This document shows, in pieces, positions 1 to 61,178 of a stretch of 64,000 nucleotides of DNA. Location of the stretch: contig URNW01000001.1 of assembly GCA_900549285.1 (NCBI GenBank), positions 32,252-96,251 on the forward strand, in the 5' to 3' direction. Below the pieces are notes generated by a model. That model made no database searches and had not been told where the DNA came from. It worked only from the letters and a program-made list of their open reading frames with translations. The stretch comes from an uncultured Mycoplasmatota bacterium (GTDB lineage: Bacteria; Bacillota_I; Bacilli_A; RF39; UBA660). The translations under genes and the position numbers were made by a program. Each line of letters opens with the position of its first letter. Position 1 is the first letter of the stretch.

Positions 1-1356
1 GAACTATTTTCTTTATTTTTAGAGCACATATTCAAACTCCCTTTAAAATTTATTCAAAATCGTACAACAGGAGAAATAGTAACAAGAATAGATGAATTAA
101 GTGATACTAAAAACTTATTTTCGGAAATATTTTCTACATTGATTTTAAATACGATTTTGATATTAGGTGCGATAGTAACACTATTTTTAATAAATAGTAA
201 ATTGTTTTTTCTTCTTTGTTTAGTAATTTTTATTTATTTAATAGTAGGGCTTTTATTTAGCAAAATAATCTATCACAAAGTAAAAGAAAATATAGAAGCA
301 ACAACGAATTTTAACACAACATTAATAGAAAATGTAGACATGAATTTTAGTATAAAAAATTTAAATTTAATTCGAGAATTTATATATCGAATTGAAAATA
401 AATTGATACTAATGTTAAAGAGTAATTTTTCTTTTATTAATATTTTAAATGTAATTGAATTAATGAAAAATTTTATTTATGAAATTGGCTTGTTTATTAT
501 TACAACTTTAGGAGTTTATTTAATTTACAAGGGAGAACTAGAACTATTAAGTTTAGTAACTTTTAATAGTGTTATTCTCTATTTATTTAATCCTGTAAAG
601 GAGTTAGTCAATTTAGTACCAAAATATAATTATTTAAAAGCCTCTTTCAGTAAATTAAGTGAATTTTTAGCAGTAGAAATAGAAAAAGAACAAGGCGGTT
701 TAAAACGAATAGTAGAGCCTACTATTACCGTAAAAGATTTAACTTATTCATATGATTTATTTAATAAAATAATTAATAAAGTGAATTTTACTATAAAGAG
801 CAAAGAAAAAGTTTTGTTAAGTGGTCCATCAGGAAGTGGTAAAAGTACCATATGCAAACTGATTTATCGAAGTTTAGGCACTTATTCTGGAAATATAGAA
901 TTTAATAATACGAGTGAATGTGATTATAGTTTAAAAGCTATCAGAGAAAATATCCTATATGTAGGCCAAAACGAAAAGCTTTTTACAGGAACAATTCGAG
1001 AAAATATTATATGTTTTAGAAATATTTCAGATGAAAAGTTTAAACAAGTATGTAAAATTTGCAAATTAGAAGAAATCATAAATAAAAGGCCAAATCGGTA
1101 TAATACAATTATAAATGCTTCTCTAAATAATTTAAGTGGAGGAGAAAAACAAAGGATTATTCTAGCAAGAGCATTGCTTAAAAAAGCTAAAGTAATTATT
1201 TTAGATGAAGCATTAAGTGAAGTGAATGTTAATATGGAAAAAGAGATCTTGGATAATATTTTTAAATATTTTAATAATCATACTATAATTTATGTTACAC
1301 ATAAAAATGTAGAAGATAAATTTACTAAAATTATTCGCTTAGGAGAAACATGTTAG
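1..1356 (+). CDS. Peptide/bacteriocin-export ABC transporter (TMD + NBD). 5'-partial: the reading frame is open from the window start, so any N-terminal C39 peptidase domain would be upstream.
   Basis: Frame 1 is open from nt 1 into the ORF called at 139. Hydrophobic TM segments are followed by Walker A (GPSGSGKST), ABC signature (LSGGEKQRIILARALL), Walker B (IILDEAL) and H-loop (VTHK). Position immediately upstream of the GG-leader peptides. Confidence 0.8.
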   Translation, partial: ELFSLFLEHIFKLPLKFIQNRTTGEIVTRIDELSDTKNLFSEIFSTLILNTILILGAIVTLFLINSKLFFLLCLVIFIYLIVGLLFSKIIYHKVKENIEATTNFNTTLIENVDMNFSIKNLNLIREFIYRIENKLILMLKSNFSFINILNVIELMKNFIYEIGLFIITTLGVYLIYKGELELLSLVTFNSVILYLFNPVKELVNLVPKYNYLKASFSKLSEFLAVEIEKEQGGLKRIVEPTITVKDLTYSYDLFNKIINKVNFTIKSKEKVLLSGPSGSGKSTICKLIYRSLGTYSGNIEFNNTSECDYSLKAIRENILYVGQNEKLFTGTIRENIICFRNISDEKFKQVCKICKLEEIINKRPNRYNTIINASLNNLSGGEKQRIILARALLKKAKVIILDEALSEVNVNMEKEILDNIFKYFNNHTIIYVTHKNVEDKFTKIIRLGETC

Positions 1357-1760
1357 ATATTTTTAATAATAAAGTTGCTTTCTTGAAAATAAAGCCTAGA
1401 ATAGGATTTTTAGTAGTAATCTTAATGCTAATTGCTTTATTGTTTTTACTAATTTTCATGTATAAAGTAAAAGTCTATGATCACTATCAAACCAAAGGAG
1501 TGGCTAATTGTACAGATACTTGTACAATTACTACTGCTATACCAACCAATTTAAATTTTGCTTTACTTGCAATCAATAATAGAACATCAACATATGAAAT
1601 CATCAAAAAAGAGTTAAAAGTAGATAACAAAAGCTATGAAACATACTATGAAATAGTTTTATCTGTATCTAATGACTTTCATAATAATGAAGTAGTTAAT
1701 TTAAATTTCTATTATAATAAACAAAGAATAATAACTAAAATAAAAAATAAAATGTTTTAA
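1350..1760 (+). CDS. Putative bacteriocin secretion accessory protein. Short, with a single N-terminal TM, HlyD/LcnD-like N-terminus only.
   Basis: ATG overlaps the transporter stop (ATGTTAG). Single TM helix after a charged N-terminus. Only 136 aa, versus about 450 aa for canonical accessory proteins. Confidence 0.35.
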   Translation: MLDIFNNKVAFLKIKPRIGFLVVILMLIALLFLLIFMYKVKVYDHYQTKGVANCTDTCTITTAIPTNLNFALLAINNRTSTYEIIKKELKVDNKSYETYYEIVLSVSNDFHNNEVVNLNFYYNKQRIITKIKNKMF

Positions 1761-1774
1761 AAAAGGAGGAACTT

Positions 1775-1906
1775 ATGAAAAGAATGGAAAATAAAGAATT
1801 AATAAATTGTAGTGGAGGAGGACTTTTTAGTGTTGTTGCCAATTTAATATCTAGTGTGATTTCATTAGTAAAAGCTATTTGTTCCTTGAAGAATTTAAGA
1901 GGCTAA
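1775..1906 (+). CDS. Double-glycine-leader peptide 1. 43-aa class II bacteriocin-like precursor.
   Basis: Not in the ORF track. RBS AAAGGAGGA at 1762-1770, then ATG at 1775. Translation MKRMENKELINCSGGG|LFSVVANLISSVISLVKAICSLKNLRG. The leader is ELxxxxGG-like, followed by an amphipathic hydrophobic core. Confidence 0.6.
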   Translation: MKRMENKELINCSGGGLFSVVANLISSVISLVKAICSLKNLRG

Positions 1907-1907
1907 A

Positions 1908-2045
1908 ATGAAATATTTAAAAGAGAACGAATTAAACAATATAAACGGCGGTATTTCGGCAATAGGAATACTAGGAGGAATAGCGATTGCTATAACTTTC
2001 ATAGCATCAGTAGTATATGGATATTTTAATCCAAAGGAGAGCTAA
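1908..2045 (+). CDS. Double-glycine-leader peptide 2. 45-aa precursor whose mature part is GxxxG-rich, like class IIb two-peptide bacteriocins.
   Basis: Not in the ORF track. Translation MKYLKENELNNINGG|ISAIGILGGIAIAITFIASVVYGYFNPKES. The leader is a perfect ELxxIxGG consensus. The mature peptide has a GxxxG-like motif (GILGG). Confidence 0.7.
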   Translation: MKYLKENELNNINGGISAIGILGGIAIAITFIASVVYGYFNPKES

Positions 2046-2046
2046 C

Positions 2047-2190
2047 ATGAAAATAAATGATCACGAATTAATTAAAATTTATGGTGGAGCCATTAATGGA
2101 ACATTAATAAATGCGTTTGCGAGATTATTAGATTTGGCAATTGAAATAGGAAAAATGATTGGCTATTCCCTTCAACGTTTAATAAAATAA
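2047..2190 (+). CDS. Double-glycine-leader peptide 3. 47-aa bacteriocin or peptide-pheromone precursor.
   Basis: Not in the ORF track. Translation MKINDHELIKIYGG|AINGTLINAFARLLDLAIEIGKMIGYSLQRLIK. The leader matches ELxxIxGG. The mature part is an amphipathic cationic helix. Confidence 0.65.
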   Translation: MKINDHELIKIYGGAINGTLINAFARLLDLAIEIGKMIGYSLQRLIK

Positions 2191-2250
2191 TCAAAAAAGG
2201 GTTTTTATTAAAACTCTTTTTTGATATAATAAATTATATGGTGATTATAC

Positions 2251-2460
2251 ATGAATAAAAAAGGATTTGCAGCTACATATATGGTGTACTCTTTATTTTT
2301 AATTTTCATTTTAATGATGATAACTGTATTATTAGTCAATAATTATAAAAGTGATTTTTTAAATGCTTTAAAAAAGGATATTAAAGAAGACTTAAAAGAA
2401 GAAAAATTAGAAGTAAAAGAAGAAATAATACCAGAAATAGGAGAAAATAGTGTGAATTAA
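2251..2460 (+). CDS. Small membrane protein, possibly a bacteriocin immunity protein.
   Basis: 69 aa with a hydrophobic N-terminal TM helix and a charged Lys/Glu-rich tail. Sits directly after the peptide genes. Confidence 0.4.
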   Translation: MNKKGFAATYMVYSLFLIFILMMITVLLVNNYKSDFLNALKKDIKEDLKEEKLEVKEEIIPEIGENSVN

Positions 2461-2472
2461 CACTTAAAAAAC

Positions 2473-2501
2473 TTGCTTATCATGTTCTTTGGTGATATAA
2501 T
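2473..2501 (+). promoter_or_regulatory. Sigma-A-type promoter for rpsU-yqeY.
   Basis: TTGCTT, 17-nt spacer, TATAAT, with an upstream TG (extended -10). Followed by the RBS GAAGGGAGGGA before the 2534 ATG. Confidence 0.5.
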
Positions 2502-2533
2502 CATTTGTAGTAAATGAAGGGAGGGATTTGTAA

Positions 2534-2719
2534 ATGACAAAAGTAGTAGTAAAAAATGGAGATGTTGATGGCGCATTAAAAAAGTTTAAAACAAAAGTTG
2601 CCCGCAGCGGTGTCCCTTCAGAGTTAAAGAAAAGAAAACATTATGAAAAACCAGGCGTTCGTAGAAGAAATGAAAAAAAAGAACAAATAAAAAATGCAAG
2701 AAAGCATAGAAATTATTAA
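2534..2719 (+). CDS. rpsU: 30S ribosomal protein S21.
   Basis: 61 aa, very basic, with a typical S21 sequence (MTKVVVKNGD...RKHYEKPGVRRRNEKK). Confidence 0.9.
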   Translation: MTKVVVKNGDVDGALKKFKTKVARSGVPSELKKRKHYEKPGVRRRNEKKEQIKNARKHRNY

Positions 2720-2728
2720 GGTGATCAT

Positions 2729-3163
2729 ATGAATAATAAAATTGCTGAAGATTTAAAAATAGCTATGAAAAATGGTGATAAATTCAAGCTATCAGTTCTA
2801 AGAATGTTAAAAAGTGCTTTACAATTAGATTCTATAAGTAAAAAACATGATCTTAATGATGATGAAGTAATGGCTGTAATTAAAAAGCAAGTAAAAACTC
2901 GTAAAGATTCTATAGAAGAATTTAAAAAATATGGAAAAGACACAGAAATAACTAAATTAGAGCAAGAGATAGAAATTTTAAATGCTTATTTACCAGAAGA
3001 AATGACAGAAGAAGAAATTAATAAAGTCATTGATGAAGTATTTAACAAATTAAATCCTACAGGGATGAAAGATATGGGCGGAGTAATGAAAGAATTAAAT
3101 ACCAAAATTACCAATGCTGATATGTCGCTAGTAAGTAGGATGGTAAAGGAAAGACTAAGTTAG
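2729..3163 (+). CDS. yqeY: GatB/YqeY domain protein.
   Basis: The conserved rpsU-yqeY arrangement of Firmicutes. 144 aa, helical and acidic. Confidence 0.8.
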   Translation: MNNKIAEDLKIAMKNGDKFKLSVLRMLKSALQLDSISKKHDLNDDEVMAVIKKQVKTRKDSIEEFKKYGKDTEITKLEQEIEILNAYLPEEMTEEEINKVIDEVFNKLNPTGMKDMGGVMKELNTKITNADMSLVSRMVKERLS

Positions 3164-3261
3164 TCTTTTTTGTTTAAAAATATTAGAACCACAATAAAGG
3201 GTTAAAAGTTTGAAATTTTATATAAAAATTTCATTTAGGTATTTAAAGAATAATTTTTTTC

Positions 3262-3290
3262 TTGACAAATTCATATAATAAAGATATAAT
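3262..3290 (+). promoter_or_regulatory. Promoter of the infC-rpmI-rplT operon.
   Basis: TTGACA at 3262-3267, 17-nt spacer, TATAAT at 3285-3290. Confidence 0.5.
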
Positions 3291-3449
3291 GTTATAGAAA
3301 TTGAAAAAGGAAAGCGAATTTTATTCCACCTGATGAATAAAGGTTCATAGGTAAAAAGCCATAATAGTTTAATATTAATGAGTTTTTTAAGGTGGAATAG
3401 TATTATTCTACCTTTTTAAATTATATGGAGGTGCGTAAGTATAGCAAGT
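3291..3449 (+). ncRNA. L20-leader-like autoregulatory leader/attenuator of infC-rpmI-rplT.
   Basis: About 160-nt untranslated leader. Long-range complement ATTCCACCT (about 3322) with AGGTGGAAT (about 3391). Hairpin GGTGGAATAGtattATTCTACC followed by TTTTT (about 3391-3418), i.e. a terminator/attenuator just upstream of the infC RBS. Matches the known L20-mediated attenuation architecture in Firmicutes. Confidence 0.5.
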
Positions 3450-3965
3450 GTGAATAAAGAGTTACCAATTAATGAGCAAATCAAAGTAGAAGAACTAATG
3501 GTAATAGGTCCAAATGGAGAACAAATGGGACTAAAAAAAATAGAAGATGCTCTAACTTTATCAAGATATGCGGGTTTAGATTTAGTTTTAATGAATGATA
3601 GTGGCAAAATGGCTGTAGGTAAAATTATGGACTACAATAAATACCGCTATGAACGTCAAAAAAAATTAAAAGAAGCCCAAAAAAAACAAAGAGAAACTAA
3701 TAAAGAATTAAAAGAATATCGTTTATCTACTACAATAGATGTTCACGATTTTGAAACTCGTGTTAGAAATGCAAAAGAGTATTTAATAAAAGGGCATAGA
3801 ATTAAAGCATTTATTCGCTTTAAAGGTCGTCAAATGGCAAGACCTGAATTAGGACGTGATGTTTTACTAAGATTTGCTGAAAGTTTAAGTGATGTTTCAA
3901 GTATAGAGGCAGAACCTAAATTAGATGGTAGACAAATGTTTATGCTATTAGCACCCAAAAAATAG
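3450..3965 (+). CDS. infC: Translation initiation factor IF-3.
   Basis: IF3 N- and C-domain sequence (EQIKVEELMVIGPNGEQMGL..., ...GRQMARPELG...). GTG at 3450. An in-frame ATA at 3441 sits 7 nt after the GGAGGTG RBS and is an alternative atypical start. Confidence 0.9.
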   Translation: MNKELPINEQIKVEELMVIGPNGEQMGLKKIEDALTLSRYAGLDLVLMNDSGKMAVGKIMDYNKYRYERQKKLKEAQKKQRETNKELKEYRLSTTIDVHDFETRVRNAKEYLIKGHRIKAFIRFKGRQMARPELGRDVLLRFAESLSDVSSIEAEPKLDGRQMFMLLAPKK

Positions 3966-3979
3966 TAGGAGGATATATT

Positions 3980-4174
3980 ATGGCAAAGTGCAAACAAAAA
4001 ACACATAAAGCAAGCAGCAAGGTTTTAACAAAGAAAAAGAATGGAACTTTAACTTACAAAAAATCAAACGGAAATCATAAGACAAACAAAGATTCAGCAA
4101 AACAAGTACGCCAAAGAAGAAATAAAGGTATTTTAGGAAAAGGAGAAGCTAGCAGATTAAAATCTGTTATCTAA
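3980..4174 (+). CDS. rpmI: 50S ribosomal protein L35.
   Basis: 64 aa, highly basic, placed between infC and rplT. Confidence 0.85.
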   Translation: MAKCKQKTHKASSKVLTKKKNGTLTYKKSNGNHKTNKDSAKQVRQRRNKGILGKGEASRLKSVI

Positions 4175-4186
4175 GGAGGTTAAAAA

Positions 4187-4717
4187 ATGACAAGAGTTAA
4201 AGGTGGAAGTGTTTCCAAAACAAGAAGAAGAAAAGTTTTAAAAGAAGCAAAAGGATATTTTGGAAGCAAACATAGATTATATAAAACAGCACAAGAGCAA
4301 GTTTTCCATAGTGGAGCATATGCTTTTAGAGACAGAAAACAAAACAAACGTAATTTTAGAAAATTATGGATTACAAGAATTAATGCAGCTTGTCGTGAAA
4401 ATGAAATCAGTTATTCTAAATTCATGAATGGATTATCTAAAGCTGGAATTGAAATCAATCGTAAGATGTTAAGTGAAATGGCTATTGATAATTCTAATGC
4501 ATTTGCTGAATTAGTTAAAATTTCTAAAGATGCCTTAAATGGTAAAATGCCTGTTAAAAAAGCAGAATCAAAAAAAGAACCAAAAGTTGAAGTTCAAAAT
4601 CAAACAAAAGATTATAGTAAAATGACCTTATCAGAACTTAAAGCAATAGCTAAAGAAAAAGGAATTAAAGGTTATTCTACAATGAAAAAAGAAGAATTAA
4701 TTACAAGTTTAAATTAA
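4187..4717 (+). CDS. rplT: 50S ribosomal protein L20 with an approximately 55-aa C-terminal Rho_N/SAP-like extension.
   Basis: Residues 1-120 are canonical L20. The C-terminal tail has a Lys-rich linker, then [28 protein letters not shown], which matches the Rho N-terminal-domain (Rho_N) motif. Confidence 0.9.
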
Positions 4718-4740
4718 AAGAGCCCTAAAGCTCTTTTTTG
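4717..4740 (+). terminator. Rho-independent terminator after rplT.
   Basis: AAAGAGC-cctaaa-GCTCTTT followed by TTTTT. Confidence 0.6.
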
Positions 4741-4766
4741 TTATAAATGAAAGTGATGATTCTAAA

Positions 4767-6119
4767 TCACATAAATTTATTAAATTTTTCAATAAAAGAA
4801 AATAGCCACTGATCAGTTAAAGAAATGGAAGTAATAGAAACACATTCTTTTGTCGAATGAGCATTTAATATTTTAGAAGAAATAATAGCAACTTGTAAAT
4901 CTTTCATTTTTTCTTGAAAAAAGCCTACTTCAACAGTTATATGAGCTAATGTAACATTAGGCACCTTAGAATATGGAGAAGAATCTTGAAGAAGTTTAAC
5001 GAATGAAGAATTTGCATCAGAATAAAAGCCTGGTTGATATCCGATAATTTGCAGTGTAAAATTATAACATTCTGCATAGGCTTTTAGTTTTTCTAATGTG
5101 ATATTAGCTTCATTCTCTCTAGAACTTCTAAGTCCAATCTCTAATCTTTGATCGTGAATTACGCCTAAATTTAATGAAGTTGTAACTAATTTTTTTTCGT
5201 TAAAATAAAGAGCTTTACTAGGGAATTTTACTAAAAAATCTAATAGTAAAGAGGAATTGCTATAATAATGAGAATGAAAATCAATTTCATGAAATGTAAC
5301 TGCTAAATTAGGATATTTTTTTTGATATTTATCTAGAAAAGATGATATTTTTGATAGAATAATACTTTCATCACTATTAATAATAGCTTCTGCTTTTGAA
5401 GGAAAAACATTATTTTTAGTACCACCATCAATACAAATTACTTCTCCATCTATGCTTTTGAGTAATTCTGCCATTAATAAAATAGCATTACCACGTTTTT
5501 TATTGATATCATATCCCGAATGTCCTCCAAGTAGGCCACTTAAAAAAATAAAATAAGAGTGTTCATATTGTCCTTTTTTAGTCTTTCGTTCCTTCGGTTC
5601 TATAAAAAGATCATAATAGGCTGCTGATTCAGTTAAAATTGTATTTTCTTCAAATCCATCTAAATTAAGTAAATATTTTCCACTTAAAAGTGTTGAATCA
5701 AGATGAATAGCACCATCCATAGTTGTTTCTTCACTAGTAGTAAAAACAGCTTCAATATTACAAGGAAAATCGCTATCTAAAACGTTCAGAATTTGAGCTA
5801 CTCCAATACCATTATCAGCTCCAAGAGTAGTATTAATAGCAGATAAATAATCATCTATTTCTTGAATTTGAATAGGCATTTTATCAAAATCAAAATTTGC
5901 TATATCACTTACACACACCATATCCGTATGAGCCTGTAAAATGAGGCAAGGAAAACGCTTATCTACTTTCTTAATGATCACATTATGATATTCATCTTCA
6001 AAATAAAATAAATTTCTTTCTTTAGCAAATCTAACTAAATATTTAGCAATATTTGCTTCGTTGCCAGATTCACGAGGAATCTTCGCTATTTCTTTAAAAA
6101 AATGAAGGGTTTTATTCAT
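4767..6119 (-). CDS. pepD: Aminoacyl-histidine dipeptidase (M20C, PepD-like).
   Basis: 450 aa. M20 motifs (HTDMV, GADNGIGV, TTSEETTMDGA). Confidence 0.8.
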   Translation of the reverse strand: MNKTLHFFKEIAKIPRESGNEANIAKYLVRFAKERNLFYFEDEYHNVIIKKVDKRFPCLILQAHTDMVCVSDIANFDFDKMPIQIQEIDDYLSAINTTLGADNGIGVAQILNVLDSDFPCNIEAVFTTSEETTMDGAIHLDSTLLSGKYLLNLDGFEENTILTESAAYYDLFIEPKERKTKKGQYEHSYFIFLSGLLGGHSGYDINKKRGNAILLMAELLKSIDGEVICIDGGTKNNVFPSKAEAIINSDESIILSKISSFLDKYQKKYPNLAVTFHEIDFHSHYYSNSSLLLDFLVKFPSKALYFNEKKLVTTSLNLGVIHDQRLEIGLRSSRENEANITLEKLKAYAECYNFTLQIIGYQPGFYSDANSSFVKLLQDSSPYSKVPNVTLAHITVEVGFFQEKMKDLQVAIISSKILNAHSTKECVSITSISLTDQWLFSFIEKFNKFM

Positions 6120-37502: not shown

Positions 37503-39191
37503 ATGGAATTTGAGGTATTAAAAAGAAGTCATTTAAAAAGAAATATGGTGATTGTATTACTAGTCGTAGCAATAATTAGTGCAATAGTACTTAATTTTAC
37601 TAGAGCAAAATACAAAACAGAAGAGTCTATTCCCCTAATAAATGGCACAATTAACTATAAAATACCAGACTTTAACACTTTAGCTATATATATTGAGGAT
37701 AGTAATAATAATTATATTTCTACAAATGAAGTACCAAGTGATGGATATGATTTCAATCAAGAAAAAAGCTATTGTACAACAAATAATAAAACGGATACAT
37801 CAATCCAAATAGAATATTTAAATGGGTTAATTTCGTTAAGTAATATTAATAAACGTACCAAGTGTTATTTTTATTTTAATTTACAAGAAAACGCTACAAA
37901 CTTAAAAGATAAGATAATAGCAAATAATGGTGGCAAAGAAAAATTAGAAACAAATATAATAAAAGACTTTTCTGTCATTGCACCTAGAACAATAAAAACT
38001 GTAGATGAAGGAACAAAAGAAAGCAGCGTATTTAGTACAGACGCTACTATAATAACTTACCTTGCATATGCAGATAGCTATGATTTTAATGAAGAAACGG
38101 GATTATACAGTTTAAATGACCCAATAATAAGCTCCTATCAAGAAGCATATAATAAAATAAAAGGAAAATATATATCAACACCATATTATACAAGTGAAAC
38201 ATCAACGAATATTCCAACAAATAATTTAGAACAAGTATATGAAGTAACAGATACTAATTCTAAATTAATATATATGAAAGAATCCGTAAAAACTCAAATT
38301 TCTGATATGAATGACAAAGGATTATACAAAACAAGTGATAGTTATGGGACAAGTTATTATTTTAGAGGTGCCGTAGATAATAATTGGCTATATTTTGCAG
38401 GATTTTACTGGCGAATTATCAGAATTAATGGAGATGGATCAATTAGACTGATATATACTGGAAAAAAAGGGGAAGTAATTCCCGCTAATGCTCCTGTTTC
38501 ATATCGAAATATCAATACTGTATTAAACAATAGTAATAACTATCCATACACAATGTATACGAATCAAGCAGAATATGTGGGATATATGTATGAATTAGGA
38601 TTATCTCATGGTGTAAAATATGATAGTTTTATCAAAAGTATAGTAGATGCATGGTATAAAAATAACTTAAAAAATTATACATCATATTTAGCAGATAATG
38701 GATTTTGCAATGATAGAAGTAGTGTAGTTTTAGGAAGTGTAACAACACCAGCAGAAGCAATAGGAACTAATCAAGTAGATTTTAATCCGTTGATTAGAAA
38801 TTATATTAATAAAAATCCAAGTTTAAAATGTTCCAATAAAGAAGATAATTTTACTGTTCAAGATATTCAAAATGGAAATGGTGCTTTAACATATCCAATA
38901 GGATTAATTACAATTGATGAAGTAGCCTATGCGGGAGCGGTATATGAAAAAGTAAATCACAATAATTATTTAACTAATGCAGTAAATTATTGGACAATGA
39001 GCCCGTTTAATAGTGGAAATGGCAAATATAAAATGAGTAATATGAATGTAGCTTGGAATGGTATGATAGCATCAGATCAATCAAATAATGCCAATGGTGG
39101 CATAAGACCAGTTATTAGTTTAAAATCAACTGTAAAAGCAATTGGCAATGGTACTTCTTCAAACCCTTATGTTGTTATTAGTACAGAATAA
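37503..39191 (+). CDS. N-terminally anchored extracellular protein of unknown function (562 aa). Paralog of 59874-61178.
   Basis: Signal-anchor N-terminus. Shares with its paralog the N-terminal 130 aa, the block FAGFYWRIIRINGDG..RLIY, and the C-terminal PIGLI..DEVAYAG...WTMSP...GIRPVI.L.S.V.I..GNGTS..PY motifs. Confidence 0.6.
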   Translation: MEFEVLKRSHLKRNMVIVLLVVAIISAIVLNFTRAKYKTEESIPLINGTINYKIPDFNTLAIYIEDSNNNYISTNEVPSDGYDFNQEKSYCTTNNKTDTSIQIEYLNGLISLSNINKRTKCYFYFNLQENATNLKDKIIANNGGKEKLETNIIKDFSVIAPRTIKTVDEGTKESSVFSTDATIITYLAYADSYDFNEETGLYSLNDPIISSYQEAYNKIKGKYISTPYYTSETSTNIPTNNLEQVYEVTDTNSKLIYMKESVKTQISDMNDKGLYKTSDSYGTSYYFRGAVDNNWLYFAGFYWRIIRINGDGSIRLIYTGKKGEVIPANAPVSYRNINTVLNNSNNYPYTMYTNQAEYVGYMYELGLSHGVKYDSFIKSIVDAWYKNNLKNYTSYLADNGFCNDRSSVVLGSVTTPAEAIGTNQVDFNPLIRNYINKNPSLKCSNKEDNFTVQDIQNGNGALTYPIGLITIDEVAYAGAVYEKVNHNNYLTNAVNYWTMSPFNSGNGKYKMSNMNVAWNGMIASDQSNNANGGIRPVISLKSTVKAIGNGTSSNPYVVISTE

Positions 39192-59873: not shown

Positions 59874-61178
59874 ATGGAAATAGAAACTTTAAAGAAAAGC
59901 CATTTAAAAAGAAATATTGTAATAGCTGTGGTAGTAGTAGCAATTATTAGTGCAATAGTACTTAATTTTACAAGGGCAAAATATAAAAATACAGAGTCAA
60001 TACCACTAGTAAATGGAACAATTAACTATACACCATATGATTTAAAAATGGTTGCTATGTATCAAGAAGAAAATGGAGATTATAAAAGTATAGATACAGT
60101 ACCAACTAGTGGATATACTTTAAATGAAGAGAAAAGCTATTGTGAGGTAAATGATGCAAAAGATGACAACATATCTATGGAATATAAAGATGGTAAAGTA
60201 TATATAGGAGTAAGTAAAAAAGGAACAAAATGTTATTTGTATTTTGATATACAAAATCAATATTTAGTAAAGGAATATCTTCTATCTAAATATCAAACAA
60301 TTTTAGCAAGAAATGATTTTAATGTAGCTTTAACTGAAAATACAACAGGAATAATTTATCAAGGTGAAGATAATGATGGGCAAACATACTATTTTGCAGG
60401 TAATCCCACTGATAATTGGGTCAAATTTGCAGGATTTTACTGGAGAATTATAAGAATCAATGGAGACGGAACGCTAAGACTAATATATAACGGAATAAAT
60501 GCGGACGCTACAGGTGATAACACTTCGATAAAATTAGGTTCGTTTAATAACGATCGCACAAATAATATGTATGTTGGCTATAAATATACCAATAATGAAA
60601 TTCATGGTTTAAATTATGAGAGTACAATACTTATAGCATTAAATGAATGGTATCAAACAAATTTACAAAGTTATTCAGCGTATATTGATATTAATGCTGG
60701 TTTTTGTGGAGATCGGGAACCAAGTACAAACAATACAATCAGTAATGGTTCAGGAGGAACAGGAACAACAAATACTTATTATGCGTCATATATTAGATTA
60801 GTTGCTAATAAAAACCCAACATATAAGTGTAAAAGTAATGATTTATATACCACAAGTAAGAGTAATAAGGGAAATAAATCTTTATCTAATCCCATAGGAT
60901 TAATTAGTGCAGATGAAGTAGCCTATGCGGGTGGCTCAAGCAGTATATCAAATAACAATTACTTTCTTTTTTCGAAAGGCTCATATTGGACCATGTCGCC
61001 ATATTTTTTCTATAATAATGGAGCATATGTATTTTATGTTGATTGGTATACAGGTAAATTAGCCTATTTTTCTGTTAGTTCCAGTGCAGTGGGTATACGC
61101 CCAGTTATTAATCTAGCTAGTGATGTAACAATAAAAAGTGGGAATGGAACATCTAAAACACCGTATGAGATTAGTTAA
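59874..61178 (+). CDS. N-terminally anchored extracellular protein of unknown function (434 aa). Paralog of 37503-39191.
   Basis: See 37503-39191. Same N-terminus (M.IE.LK.SHLKRN..I.....AIISAIVLNFTRAKYK..ESIPL.NGTINY) and the same internal and C-terminal motifs. Confidence 0.6.
   Translation: MEIETLKKSHLKRNIVIAVVVVAIISAIVLNFTRAKYKNTESIPLVNGTINYTPYDLKMVAMYQEENGDYKSIDTVPTSGYTLNEEKSYCEVNDAKDDNISMEYKDGKVYIGVSKKGTKCYLYFDIQNQYLVKEYLLSKYQTILARNDFNVALTENTTGIIYQGEDNDGQTYYFAGNPTDNWVKFAGFYWRIIRINGDGTLRLIYNGINADATGDNTSIKLGSFNNDRTNNMYVGYKYTNNEIHGLNYESTILIALNEWYQTNLQSYSAYIDINAGFCGDREPSTNNTISNGSGGTGTTNTYYASYIRLVANKNPTYKCKSNDLYTTSKSNKGNKSLSNPIGLISADEVAYAGGSSSISNNNYFLFSKGSYWTMSPYFFYNNGAYVFYVDWYTGKLAYFSVSSSAVGIRPVINLASDVTIKSGNGTSKTPYEIS

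Follow-up and report, generated by a model that had tools for sequence, protein, structure and literature searches.

Genes and features of the locus

We analyzed a peptide export locus at the start of a 64,000-nucleotide stretch of DNA (hereafter the window; contig URNW01000001.1, positions 32,252 to 96,251, of assembly GCA_900549285.1) from an uncultured Mycoplasmatota bacterium, where three very short open reading frames (ORFs) lie behind the gene for an ATP-binding cassette (ABC) exporter. Window positions 1-2225 are best explained as the 3' part of a single operon that codes, in this order, for a peptidase-containing ABC transporter (PCAT), an accessory protein and three small peptides that we call peptides 1, 2 and 3, and it is near certain that the locus is a PCAT-dependent double-glycine peptide operon. 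The window has a G+C content of 26%. The features are as follows.

1-1356, + strand: open frame of the ABC exporter, entering from the window edge (ORF list); C-terminal 451 codons of the PCAT (ABC_membrane 1.1e-22, ABC_tran 3.6e-29)
1350-1760, + strand: 136-amino-acid (aa) accessory protein, N-terminal transmembrane (TM) anchor, six-stranded beta domain and C-terminal helix (ORF, model)
1762-1770, + strand: Shine-Dalgarno AAAGGAGGA for peptide 1 (sequence; kept in orthologous loci)
1775-1906, + strand: peptide 1 precursor, 43 aa, leader MKRMENKELINCSGG, core GLFSVVANLISSVISLVKAICSLKNLRG
1897-1902, + strand: Shine-Dalgarno AAGAGG for peptide 2 (sequence)
1908-2045, + strand: peptide 2 precursor, 45 aa, leader MKYLKENELNNINGG, core ISAIGILGGIAIAITFIASVVYGYFNPKES
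2033-2039, + strand: Shine-Dalgarno AAAGGAG for peptide 3 (sequence)
2047-2190, + strand: peptide 3 precursor, 47 aa, leader MKINDHELIKIYGG, core AINGTLINAFARLLDLAIEIGKMIGYSLQRLIK
2190-2225, + strand: 16-bp terminator-like hairpin with A/U-rich arms, directly after the peptide 3 stop (free energy -16.5 kcal/mol, z -7.5 versus shuffles)
2222-2230, + strand: extended -10 promoter-like element TGATATAAT (consensus match only)
2240-2244, + strand: GGTGA Shine-Dalgarno of the 69-aa gene (conserved upstream of orthologues)
2251-2460, + strand: 69-aa single-pass membrane protein with an acidic tail (ORF; no Pfam/NCBIfam family)
2534-2719, + strand: rpsU, then a yqeY-like gene, infC, rpmI and rplT

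The genes are tightly packed, with a 7-nt overlap between the ABC stop and the accessory start in both the window and its orthologues, and with a spacing of 1 nt between neighboring peptide genes. An exact-sequence look-up of the 136-aa protein retrieved a 129.5-kb ENA metagenome scaffold (L001) that is 100% identical to the window across an 11,760 bp overlap, and this scaffold supplies the sequence upstream of the window edge.

Three double-glycine peptide precursors

The peptide ORFs were examined with a leader heuristic (ATG start, 30-75 aa, GG at residues 12-19, hydrophobic residues at -4/-7 and a polar residue at -8). Peptide ORFs 1-3 are the only matches on either strand of the 64-kb window, and 30 mononucleotide shuffles of the window gave no match at all. 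The initial annotation, which was made from the sequence alone, had placed the three ORFs at exactly these coordinates and had assigned double-glycine leaders to them, and both points hold. Two other details needed correction. Specifically, the AAAGGAG motif that had been assigned to peptide 2 is located at 2033-2039 and serves peptide 3, and the GGAGG reported at 2049 is not present there, with the closest copies being at 1974 and 2520. Furthermore, the genes had been described as uncalled, yet 43-, 45- and 47-aa genes are already contained in the public gene calls of the identical scaffold.

All three leaders (15, 15 and 14 aa for peptides 1, 2 and 3, respectively) have GG at -2/-1, Leu at -7, Glu at -8 and a hydrophobic residue at -12, with Ile at -4 in peptides 2 and 3 and Cys at this position in peptide 1. 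As for peptide 1, the proposed double-glycine leader stands and its boundary with the core shifts: read from the sequence, the cut would fall after the first GG of SGGG because this fits the -4/-7/-8/-12/-15 pattern, giving a 15-aa leader and a core that begins with Gly. In most species the peptide 1 orthologues have Cys or Tyr at leader position -4 as compared with the usual Ile/Val/Leu, and the cores of several orthologues open with Cys right after the GG.

The three cores have different properties. The peptide 1 core (28 aa, net charge +3) is hydrophobic with a cationic tail and contains an SxxxS motif. The peptide 2 core (30 aa, net charge 0) is TM-like with a grand average of hydropathy of 1.2, and it contains G5xxxG9 as well as a conserved S19xxxG23 (S34xxxG38 of the precursor), in line with the GxxxG-like motif of class IIb type that had been noted from sequence. 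Finally, the peptide 3 core (33 aa, net charge +2) is amphipathic, with a helical hydrophobic moment of 0.50, and carries G21xxxG25 (G35xxxG39 of the precursor). In these properties the cores of peptides 2 and 3 agree with what is expected of a class IIb-like pair. Peptide 2 also passes the NCBIfam cut-off of TIGR03949, a class IIb model covering lactobin A/cerein 7B (27.5 versus 21.5 bits), and that of TIGR01847 (16.8 versus 15.7 bits), with 22 of 26 peptide 2 orthologues matching TIGR03949 at E <= 0.01. Peptide 1 gives only weak, sub-cut-off matches to NF038035 (E <= 0.01), seen in 3 of 24 orthologues. Note that searching a database with all three precursors joined into one query gave just one match, of 75 aa, that is uninformative on peptide distribution; peptide conservation was established from fetched loci.

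The exporter is a divergent PCAT

The exporter fragment inside the window has ABC_membrane and ABC_tran domains and TIGR01193 (peptide cleavage/export) as its best NCBIfam match, as expected of the ABC peptide exporter that had been proposed to lie upstream of the peptides. It had also been suggested that extension upstream could reveal a C39 peptidase domain, and this is what we find just past the window edge. On scaffold L001, where this part was read, the complete gene has 684 codons (L001:7953-10007) and starts 699 bp upstream of the edge, and its product has an N-terminal Peptidase_C39 domain (PF03412, E 1.8e-34) as well as PF00664 ABC_membrane and PF00005 ABC_tran domains. The 684-aa protein aligns end to end (residues 5-668, E 1.7e-99) with PCAT1 of Clostridium thermocellum (4ry2), and its DCGA (catalytic Cys), HFVV (His) and DP (Asp) motifs align with those of PCAT1. 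It thus has the arrangement that defines a PCAT, namely a C39 domain with catalytic Cys, His and Asp followed by a transmembrane and a nucleotide-binding domain, and it shares this three-domain architecture with both PCAT1 and ComA (8hf4). The full-length protein scores 376.3 bits against TIGR01193, which is under the cut-off of 523.85, and is therefore a divergent PCAT. Gram-positive PCATs function alone or with one accessory protein (PMC7018657). PCAT1 works alone, whereas the window exporter is accompanied by a mini accessory protein.

The cassette is vertically conserved in uncultured gut Bacilli

A scan with the accessory profile, using one genome per GTDB species, recovered 32 loci. Their hosts are uncultured gut Bacilli that include 'Mycoplasma sp. 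CAG:776', Ca. Caccenecus, Ca. Coprovivens (the latter two placed by NCBI in Bacilli incertae sedis) and many metagenome-assembled genomes. In 29 species the order frr, AI-2E transporter, XRE (minus strand), PCAT, accessory, peptides 1-3, 69-aa gene and rpsU is collinear, while ABC identity to the window ranges from 92% down to 52%. Recognizable orthologues of all three peptides are kept across the three-peptide species, with peptide 1 present in all 29 complete loci of this clade. The three peptide genes are real, constrained genes under purifying selection: the ratio of non-synonymous to synonymous differences per site (pN/pS, Nei-Gojobori, eight close species) is 0.28 for peptide 1, 0.26 for peptide 2 and 0.17 for peptide 3. 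For example, the peptide 3 gene differs from that of one relative (L003) by 17 synonymous and 0 non-synonymous changes, and peptide 3 is 100% identical between species that have an accessory identity of 69%. The lack of a C39 domain or processing protease and the lack of conservation of the peptide ORFs in related strains had been named as findings that would refute the earlier interpretation, and both of these sequence-based checks turn out in its favor: the C39 domain exists, and the peptide ORFs are kept in at least 30 related species under purifying selection.

The placement of the cassette among sporulation and ribosomal genes is deeply conserved, with synteny beside rpsU in at least 30 species. 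Among more distant relatives that have only two peptide genes, the cassette is located directly downstream of a divergent spoIIIAH-gerE-gerM group in L038, L042, L044, L045 and L035, and directly upstream of rpsU in L038, L040, L042 and L047. Literature searches turned up no paper that describes the locus or the lineage.

Peptides 2 and 3 are the conserved pair

The two-peptide loci, ten in number (L032, L033, L035, L038, L040, L042 and L044-L047), carry homologues of peptides 2 and 3 and never of peptide 1, which is confined to the three-peptide clade; one of them (L035) has an extra ORF without a double-glycine leader. Adjacency of the peptide 2 and peptide 3 genes is kept in about 40 loci. 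The GxxxG of peptide 3 is invariant in 25 of 25 orthologues. In peptide 2, S34xxxG38 is at least 90% conserved in the clade, becomes GxxxG in distant homologues and is followed by a conserved Pro, with the conserved residues of this peptide being F31, S34, Y37, G38 and P42. An alignment of peptide 1 core orthologues has no invariant residue.

The two peptides also change together. A single C-terminal Cys is present in both peptides 2 and 3 in 29 loci and in neither peptide in 10 loci, the window among them, with no discordant locus. We know of no class IIb bacteriocin that has such a matched single C-terminal Cys in both partners. Within the shallow clade that contains the window there are two peptide 2/3 sequence types, one with Cys and one without. 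Mapped on the ABC tree, peptides 2 and 3 change type jointly, whereas peptide 1 is of one type throughout. These patterns point to peptides 2 and 3, and not peptides 1 and 2, as the conserved pair. The initial annotation had favored a two-peptide bacteriocin made of peptides 1 and 2 with peptide 3 as a possible pheromone. We consider this very unlikely. It is compatible with gene order, and peptide 2 has a GxxxG that could be matched with the SxxxS of peptide 1, but the ten distant loci keep peptide 3 and lack peptide 1, the invariant GxxxG sits in peptide 3, and the C-terminal Cys and the sequence type are coupled between peptides 2 and 3. A pheromone role for peptide 3 is further opposed by its bacteriocin-like character (33 aa and amphipathic) and by the called genes of the 20-kb locus L001, among which there is no histidine kinase or response regulator; this last result argues against a ComC/BlpC-type pheromone circuit.

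A 136-aa accessory protein with a possible membrane fusion protein-like domain

The small single-TM accessory protein that had been noted behind the exporter is real, at 136 aa, and is short throughout its family. It has no Pfam or NCBIfam match at E <= 1 and no sequence match in the PDB, and a profile of its family likewise finds only chance matches among PDB sequences (E 0.8-2). A word-indexed search returned 46 clusters, all of about 136 aa, and an exhaustive hidden Markov model (HMM) search returned 217 representatives at E <= 1e-3, nearly all of 130-150 aa; look-ups of cluster members yielded no name for the family. Since the protein is short across its whole family, it is not a truncated HlyD-type protein, an identity that the family-wide length of about 135 aa rules out.

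An AlphaFold2 model built from the family alignment (predicted local distance difference test score 82) has a TM helix at residues 17-39, six strands between residues 43 and 123 and a C-terminal helix, with no alpha-helical hairpin and no lipoyl domain. When this model was used in a Foldseek search, membrane fusion proteins (MFPs) ranked first and third with probabilities of 0.97 and 0.85, with all E-values being non-significant. There is thus moderate evidence, resting on a predicted structure, that the accessory protein may consist of a membrane anchor and an MFP-type beta-barrel without the hairpin and lipoyl domains. LcnD/ComB/BlpB-type accessories and HlyD-family MFPs are similar to it in having an N-terminal membrane anchor and a gene that lies right behind, and overlaps, the ABC gene. 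In contrast, LcnD/ComB-type accessories are about 400-470 aa long with a coiled-coil hairpin, whereas the window protein has 136 aa, a model without a hairpin and no sequence match to the LcnD/ComB or HlyD family models.

The family keeps its genomic company over long distances. In seven of eight distant members sampled (profile E 5e-15 to 5e-6) the accessory gene directly follows a C39 ABC gene that has about 680 codons or is cut by the contig end (L037, L047), and for the eighth (L040/L041) the contig holds only an uncharacterized end fragment of the upstream gene. All eight accessory genes precede small double-glycine peptide genes. One further match to the accessory profile, 31 positions at residues 2325-2355 of a 3183-aa protein (P0099; E 1e-10), is probably compositional or repeat-based.

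The 69-aa protein, immunity and regulation

A 69-aa membrane protein had been described behind the peptides, and it is present at 2251-2460 with a TM segment. Given the hairpin after peptide 3, the promoter-like element and the GGTGA site that precede it, the 69-aa gene is probably transcribed separately from the peptide operon. Its N-terminal 45 residues are near-invariant across 15 species while the acidic tail varies. The gene occurs only in the three-peptide clade, where a homologue search with the protein finds close relatives only (at least 66% identical), and neither L024 nor any of the two-peptide loci has it behind the cassette. Scanning metagenomes with the 69-aa family gave at least one locus with the same synteny among the matches listed. 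The co-occurrence of this gene with the cassette says little because the whole neighborhood is collinear in the clade. As an immunity protein, the role suggested for it earlier, the 69-aa protein is a possible but unsupported candidate. A prepilin or ComGG-like reading of its N-terminus (KKGF and a hydrophobic stretch) was rejected, with no Pfam ComGG match and no Glu at +5, and there is no other protein with a prepilin motif in the window.

Immunity-like candidates of other kinds are seen in some two-peptide loci. A TM ORF of 47 aa at L035:5343-5486 lacks a double-glycine leader and overlaps with the end of the peptide 3-like gene, and ORFs at L032:3403-3855 and L033:2511-2957, immediately upstream of the PCAT gene, code for membrane proteins of 148-150 aa.

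In regards to regulation, the divergent gene upstream of the PCAT gene codes for a 149-aa double helix-turn-helix XRE protein that passes an RstR-family repressor model (83.2 versus 80 bits). This XRE/RstR-type protein is conserved in the three-peptide clade, has no peptide-binding domain and is the only regulator in the 20-kb locus. The XRE/PCAT intergenic region (L001:7797-7952) contains three blocks, TTGTCGAAC, AAATAAAGGAAA and GTAATAAATAGTAGTGAAGGGAGG, that are invariant across 11 species and that may be promoter, operator or 5' untranslated region elements. No direct or inverted repeats were detected in this region.

A candidate class IIb-like two-peptide bacteriocin

Class IIb bacteriocins are made from adjacent genes as precursors with double-glycine leaders of 15-30 aa, which a dedicated ABC transporter removes; the peptides carry GxxxG motifs, both of them are needed for activity, and the operon includes an immunity gene (PMC2850506). 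Peptides 2 and 3 are likewise coded by adjacent genes and both carry GxxxG or GxxxG-like motifs. As in class IIb loci such as that of lactococcin G, adjacent double-glycine peptide genes share an operon with an ABC transporter and an accessory protein (PMC2850506), and as in class IIb pairs one core is TM-like and the other cationic and amphipathic. There are also several important differences. The window locus has a third co-translated double-glycine peptide, an accessory protein of 136 aa instead of about 450 aa and an immunity gene that is either not evident or located behind a terminator; peptides 1 and 3 lack similarity to named bacteriocin families; most relatives have one conserved C-terminal Cys per partner; and the locus is vertically conserved beside rpsU in many species. 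Moreover, members of the TIGR03949 family are long Gly-rich peptides, whereas the peptide 2 core is a plain hydrophobic helix. Overall the known kind of system is the PCAT/class II bacteriocin system, and what is new is the family of mini MFP-like accessories, the Cys-matched pair, the extra peptide and the deep vertical conservation.

We favor, with a probability of roughly 0.6, a main function in which peptides 2 and 3 would act as a class IIb-like two-peptide bacteriocin accompanied by a clade-specific third exported peptide. The three precursors would be made together, from genes that leave 1 nt between one stop codon and the next start codon. In the 684-aa transporter, the C39 domain would recognize the 14-15-aa double-glycine leaders and cut after GG, and the transporter would then export the cores with the aid of the membrane-anchored 136-aa protein, the extracellular part of which is predicted to resemble the beta-barrel domain of a membrane fusion protein. 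Peptide 2, as a neutral TM-like helix, and peptide 3, as a cationic amphipathic helix, would constitute the conserved functional pair and would most likely associate in a target membrane by helix-helix packing at their SxxxG/GxxxG motifs, as class IIb peptides do. The one C-terminal Cys that each of the two peptides has in most relatives may also serve to join or cap the pair; both Cys appear to have been lost in the clade of the window. Peptide 1 would be a clade-specific third exported peptide, cationic and hydrophobic, that acts either as a third component or independently, and the 69-aa protein and the divergent XRE/RstR-type repressor, which seem to have arisen in the same clade, are candidates for immunity and regulation.

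Several observations weigh against this assignment. The TIGR03949 score of peptide 2 is modest and partly leader-driven, and peptides 1 and 3 reach no family cut-off in Pfam or NCBIfam. Few evolutionary events may underlie the co-variation of Cys and sequence type, the ABC tree resolves the shallow clade poorly, and one locus (L011) has an additional internal Cys in peptide 3 only. In four two-peptide loci (L038, L040, L042, L047), the stretch from the peptides to rpsU contains no immunity candidate, which is atypical for class IIb systems, where the immunity gene normally shares the operon. Finally, many species have inherited the cassette vertically at one fixed position, and its peptides are under purifying selection, unlike most bacteriocin loci, which vary among strains.

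The fixed position, together with the loci that lack an obvious immunity gene, keeps a physiological or developmental role open. The exported peptides might not be weapons and might instead have a conserved physiological role in a spore-forming lineage, such as signaling to kin, cannibalism or timing linked to sporulation, or a role in the envelope of the producer itself. We regard this as unlikely, although it is the strongest of the alternatives. It would account for the synteny in 29 three-peptide species, the location of the cassette between spoIIIAH/gerE/gerM and rpsU in distant two-peptide lineages, the constraint on the peptides (including a peptide 3 that stays identical when accessory identity is 69%) and the absence of an evident immunity gene from several two-peptide loci. 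On the other hand, the cores resemble pore-forming two-peptide bacteriocins and not pheromones, which are short and charged; peptide 2 scores above the cut-off of a bacteriocin HMM; the 20-kb locus has neither a sensor kinase nor a peptide-binding regulator next to the cassette; and small genomes can keep gene neighborhoods without a functional link. Somewhat less probable again is that the PCAT, the mini-MFP of about 135 aa and the Cys-bearing GxxxG pair constitute an ancient module, vertically inherited in a large lineage of uncultured gut Bacilli that are AT-rich and form spores, and anchored between spoIIIAH/gerE and rpsU. Its product would be a conserved heterodimer that is exported, may be disulfide-linked and acts in development or toward kin. 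If this were true, the locus would not code for a conventional competitive bacteriocin, its role might be for example sporulation-associated cannibalism or signaling, and the mini-MFP would be a new class of PCAT partner.

That all three peptides form an obligate three-component double-glycine-leader bacteriocin in the clade is improbable in our view. Co-production is implied by one strong Shine-Dalgarno ahead of three genes that overlap or have 1 nt between them, and peptide 1 is under purifying selection and kept in every complete clade locus, but the peptide 2 and 3 pair exists without peptide 1 in ten loci, no position of the peptide 1 core is invariant, and peptide 1 does not follow the changes in peptide 2/3 type. 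In addition, the three-peptide bacteriocins found in our literature search, such as garvicin KS, are leaderless. Garvicin KS-type systems do have three small hydrophobic or cationic peptides in tandem, as does the window locus, but theirs are leaderless, mutually related and exported without C39, whereas those of the window have double-glycine leaders and unrelated cores. The idea that the small ORFs arose by chance in intergenic DNA rich in A+T is effectively refuted: they are short and two of the three lack a family match, but no such ORF occurs in the shuffles, the ORFs and their Shine-Dalgarno sites are kept in more than 30 species with ABC identity down to 52%, and synonymous differences far exceed non-synonymous ones.

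Under the preferred two-peptide reading, peptides 2 and 3 make up a candidate for a new family of two-peptide bacteriocins from gut commensals. Four protein or peptide families at this locus (peptide 1, peptide 3, the 136-aa accessory and the 69-aa membrane protein) are unnamed in Pfam and NCBIfam, and they surround a recognizable PCAT in bacteria known only from metagenomes. The mini accessory could reveal which part of the large LcnD/ComB-type accessories a PCAT needs, and the fixed position of the cassette across species raises the question of whether such peptides always serve strain-level warfare.

Other features of the window

An Rfam search of window positions 1-6000 gave no match. A TTGCTT-17-TATAAT promoter-like site lies before rpsU at 2473-2501, with its extended -10, TGATATAAT, at 2493; this 9-mer is common to the rpsU upstream site and the 69-aa gene upstream site. 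Further downstream, a 290-bp leader ahead of infC-rpmI-rplT contains a perfect TTGACA-17-TATAAT promoter match (3262-3290) and an 11-bp hairpin followed by a T-run (3389-3414), elements that look like an L20-type attenuator with no Rfam family matched. Finally, two paralogous ORFs of 562 and 434 aa are located at 37503-39191 and 59874-61178, respectively, and their products have near-identical N-termini (MEFEVLKRSHLKRN... and MEIETLKKSHLKRN...) that are followed by a TM segment.

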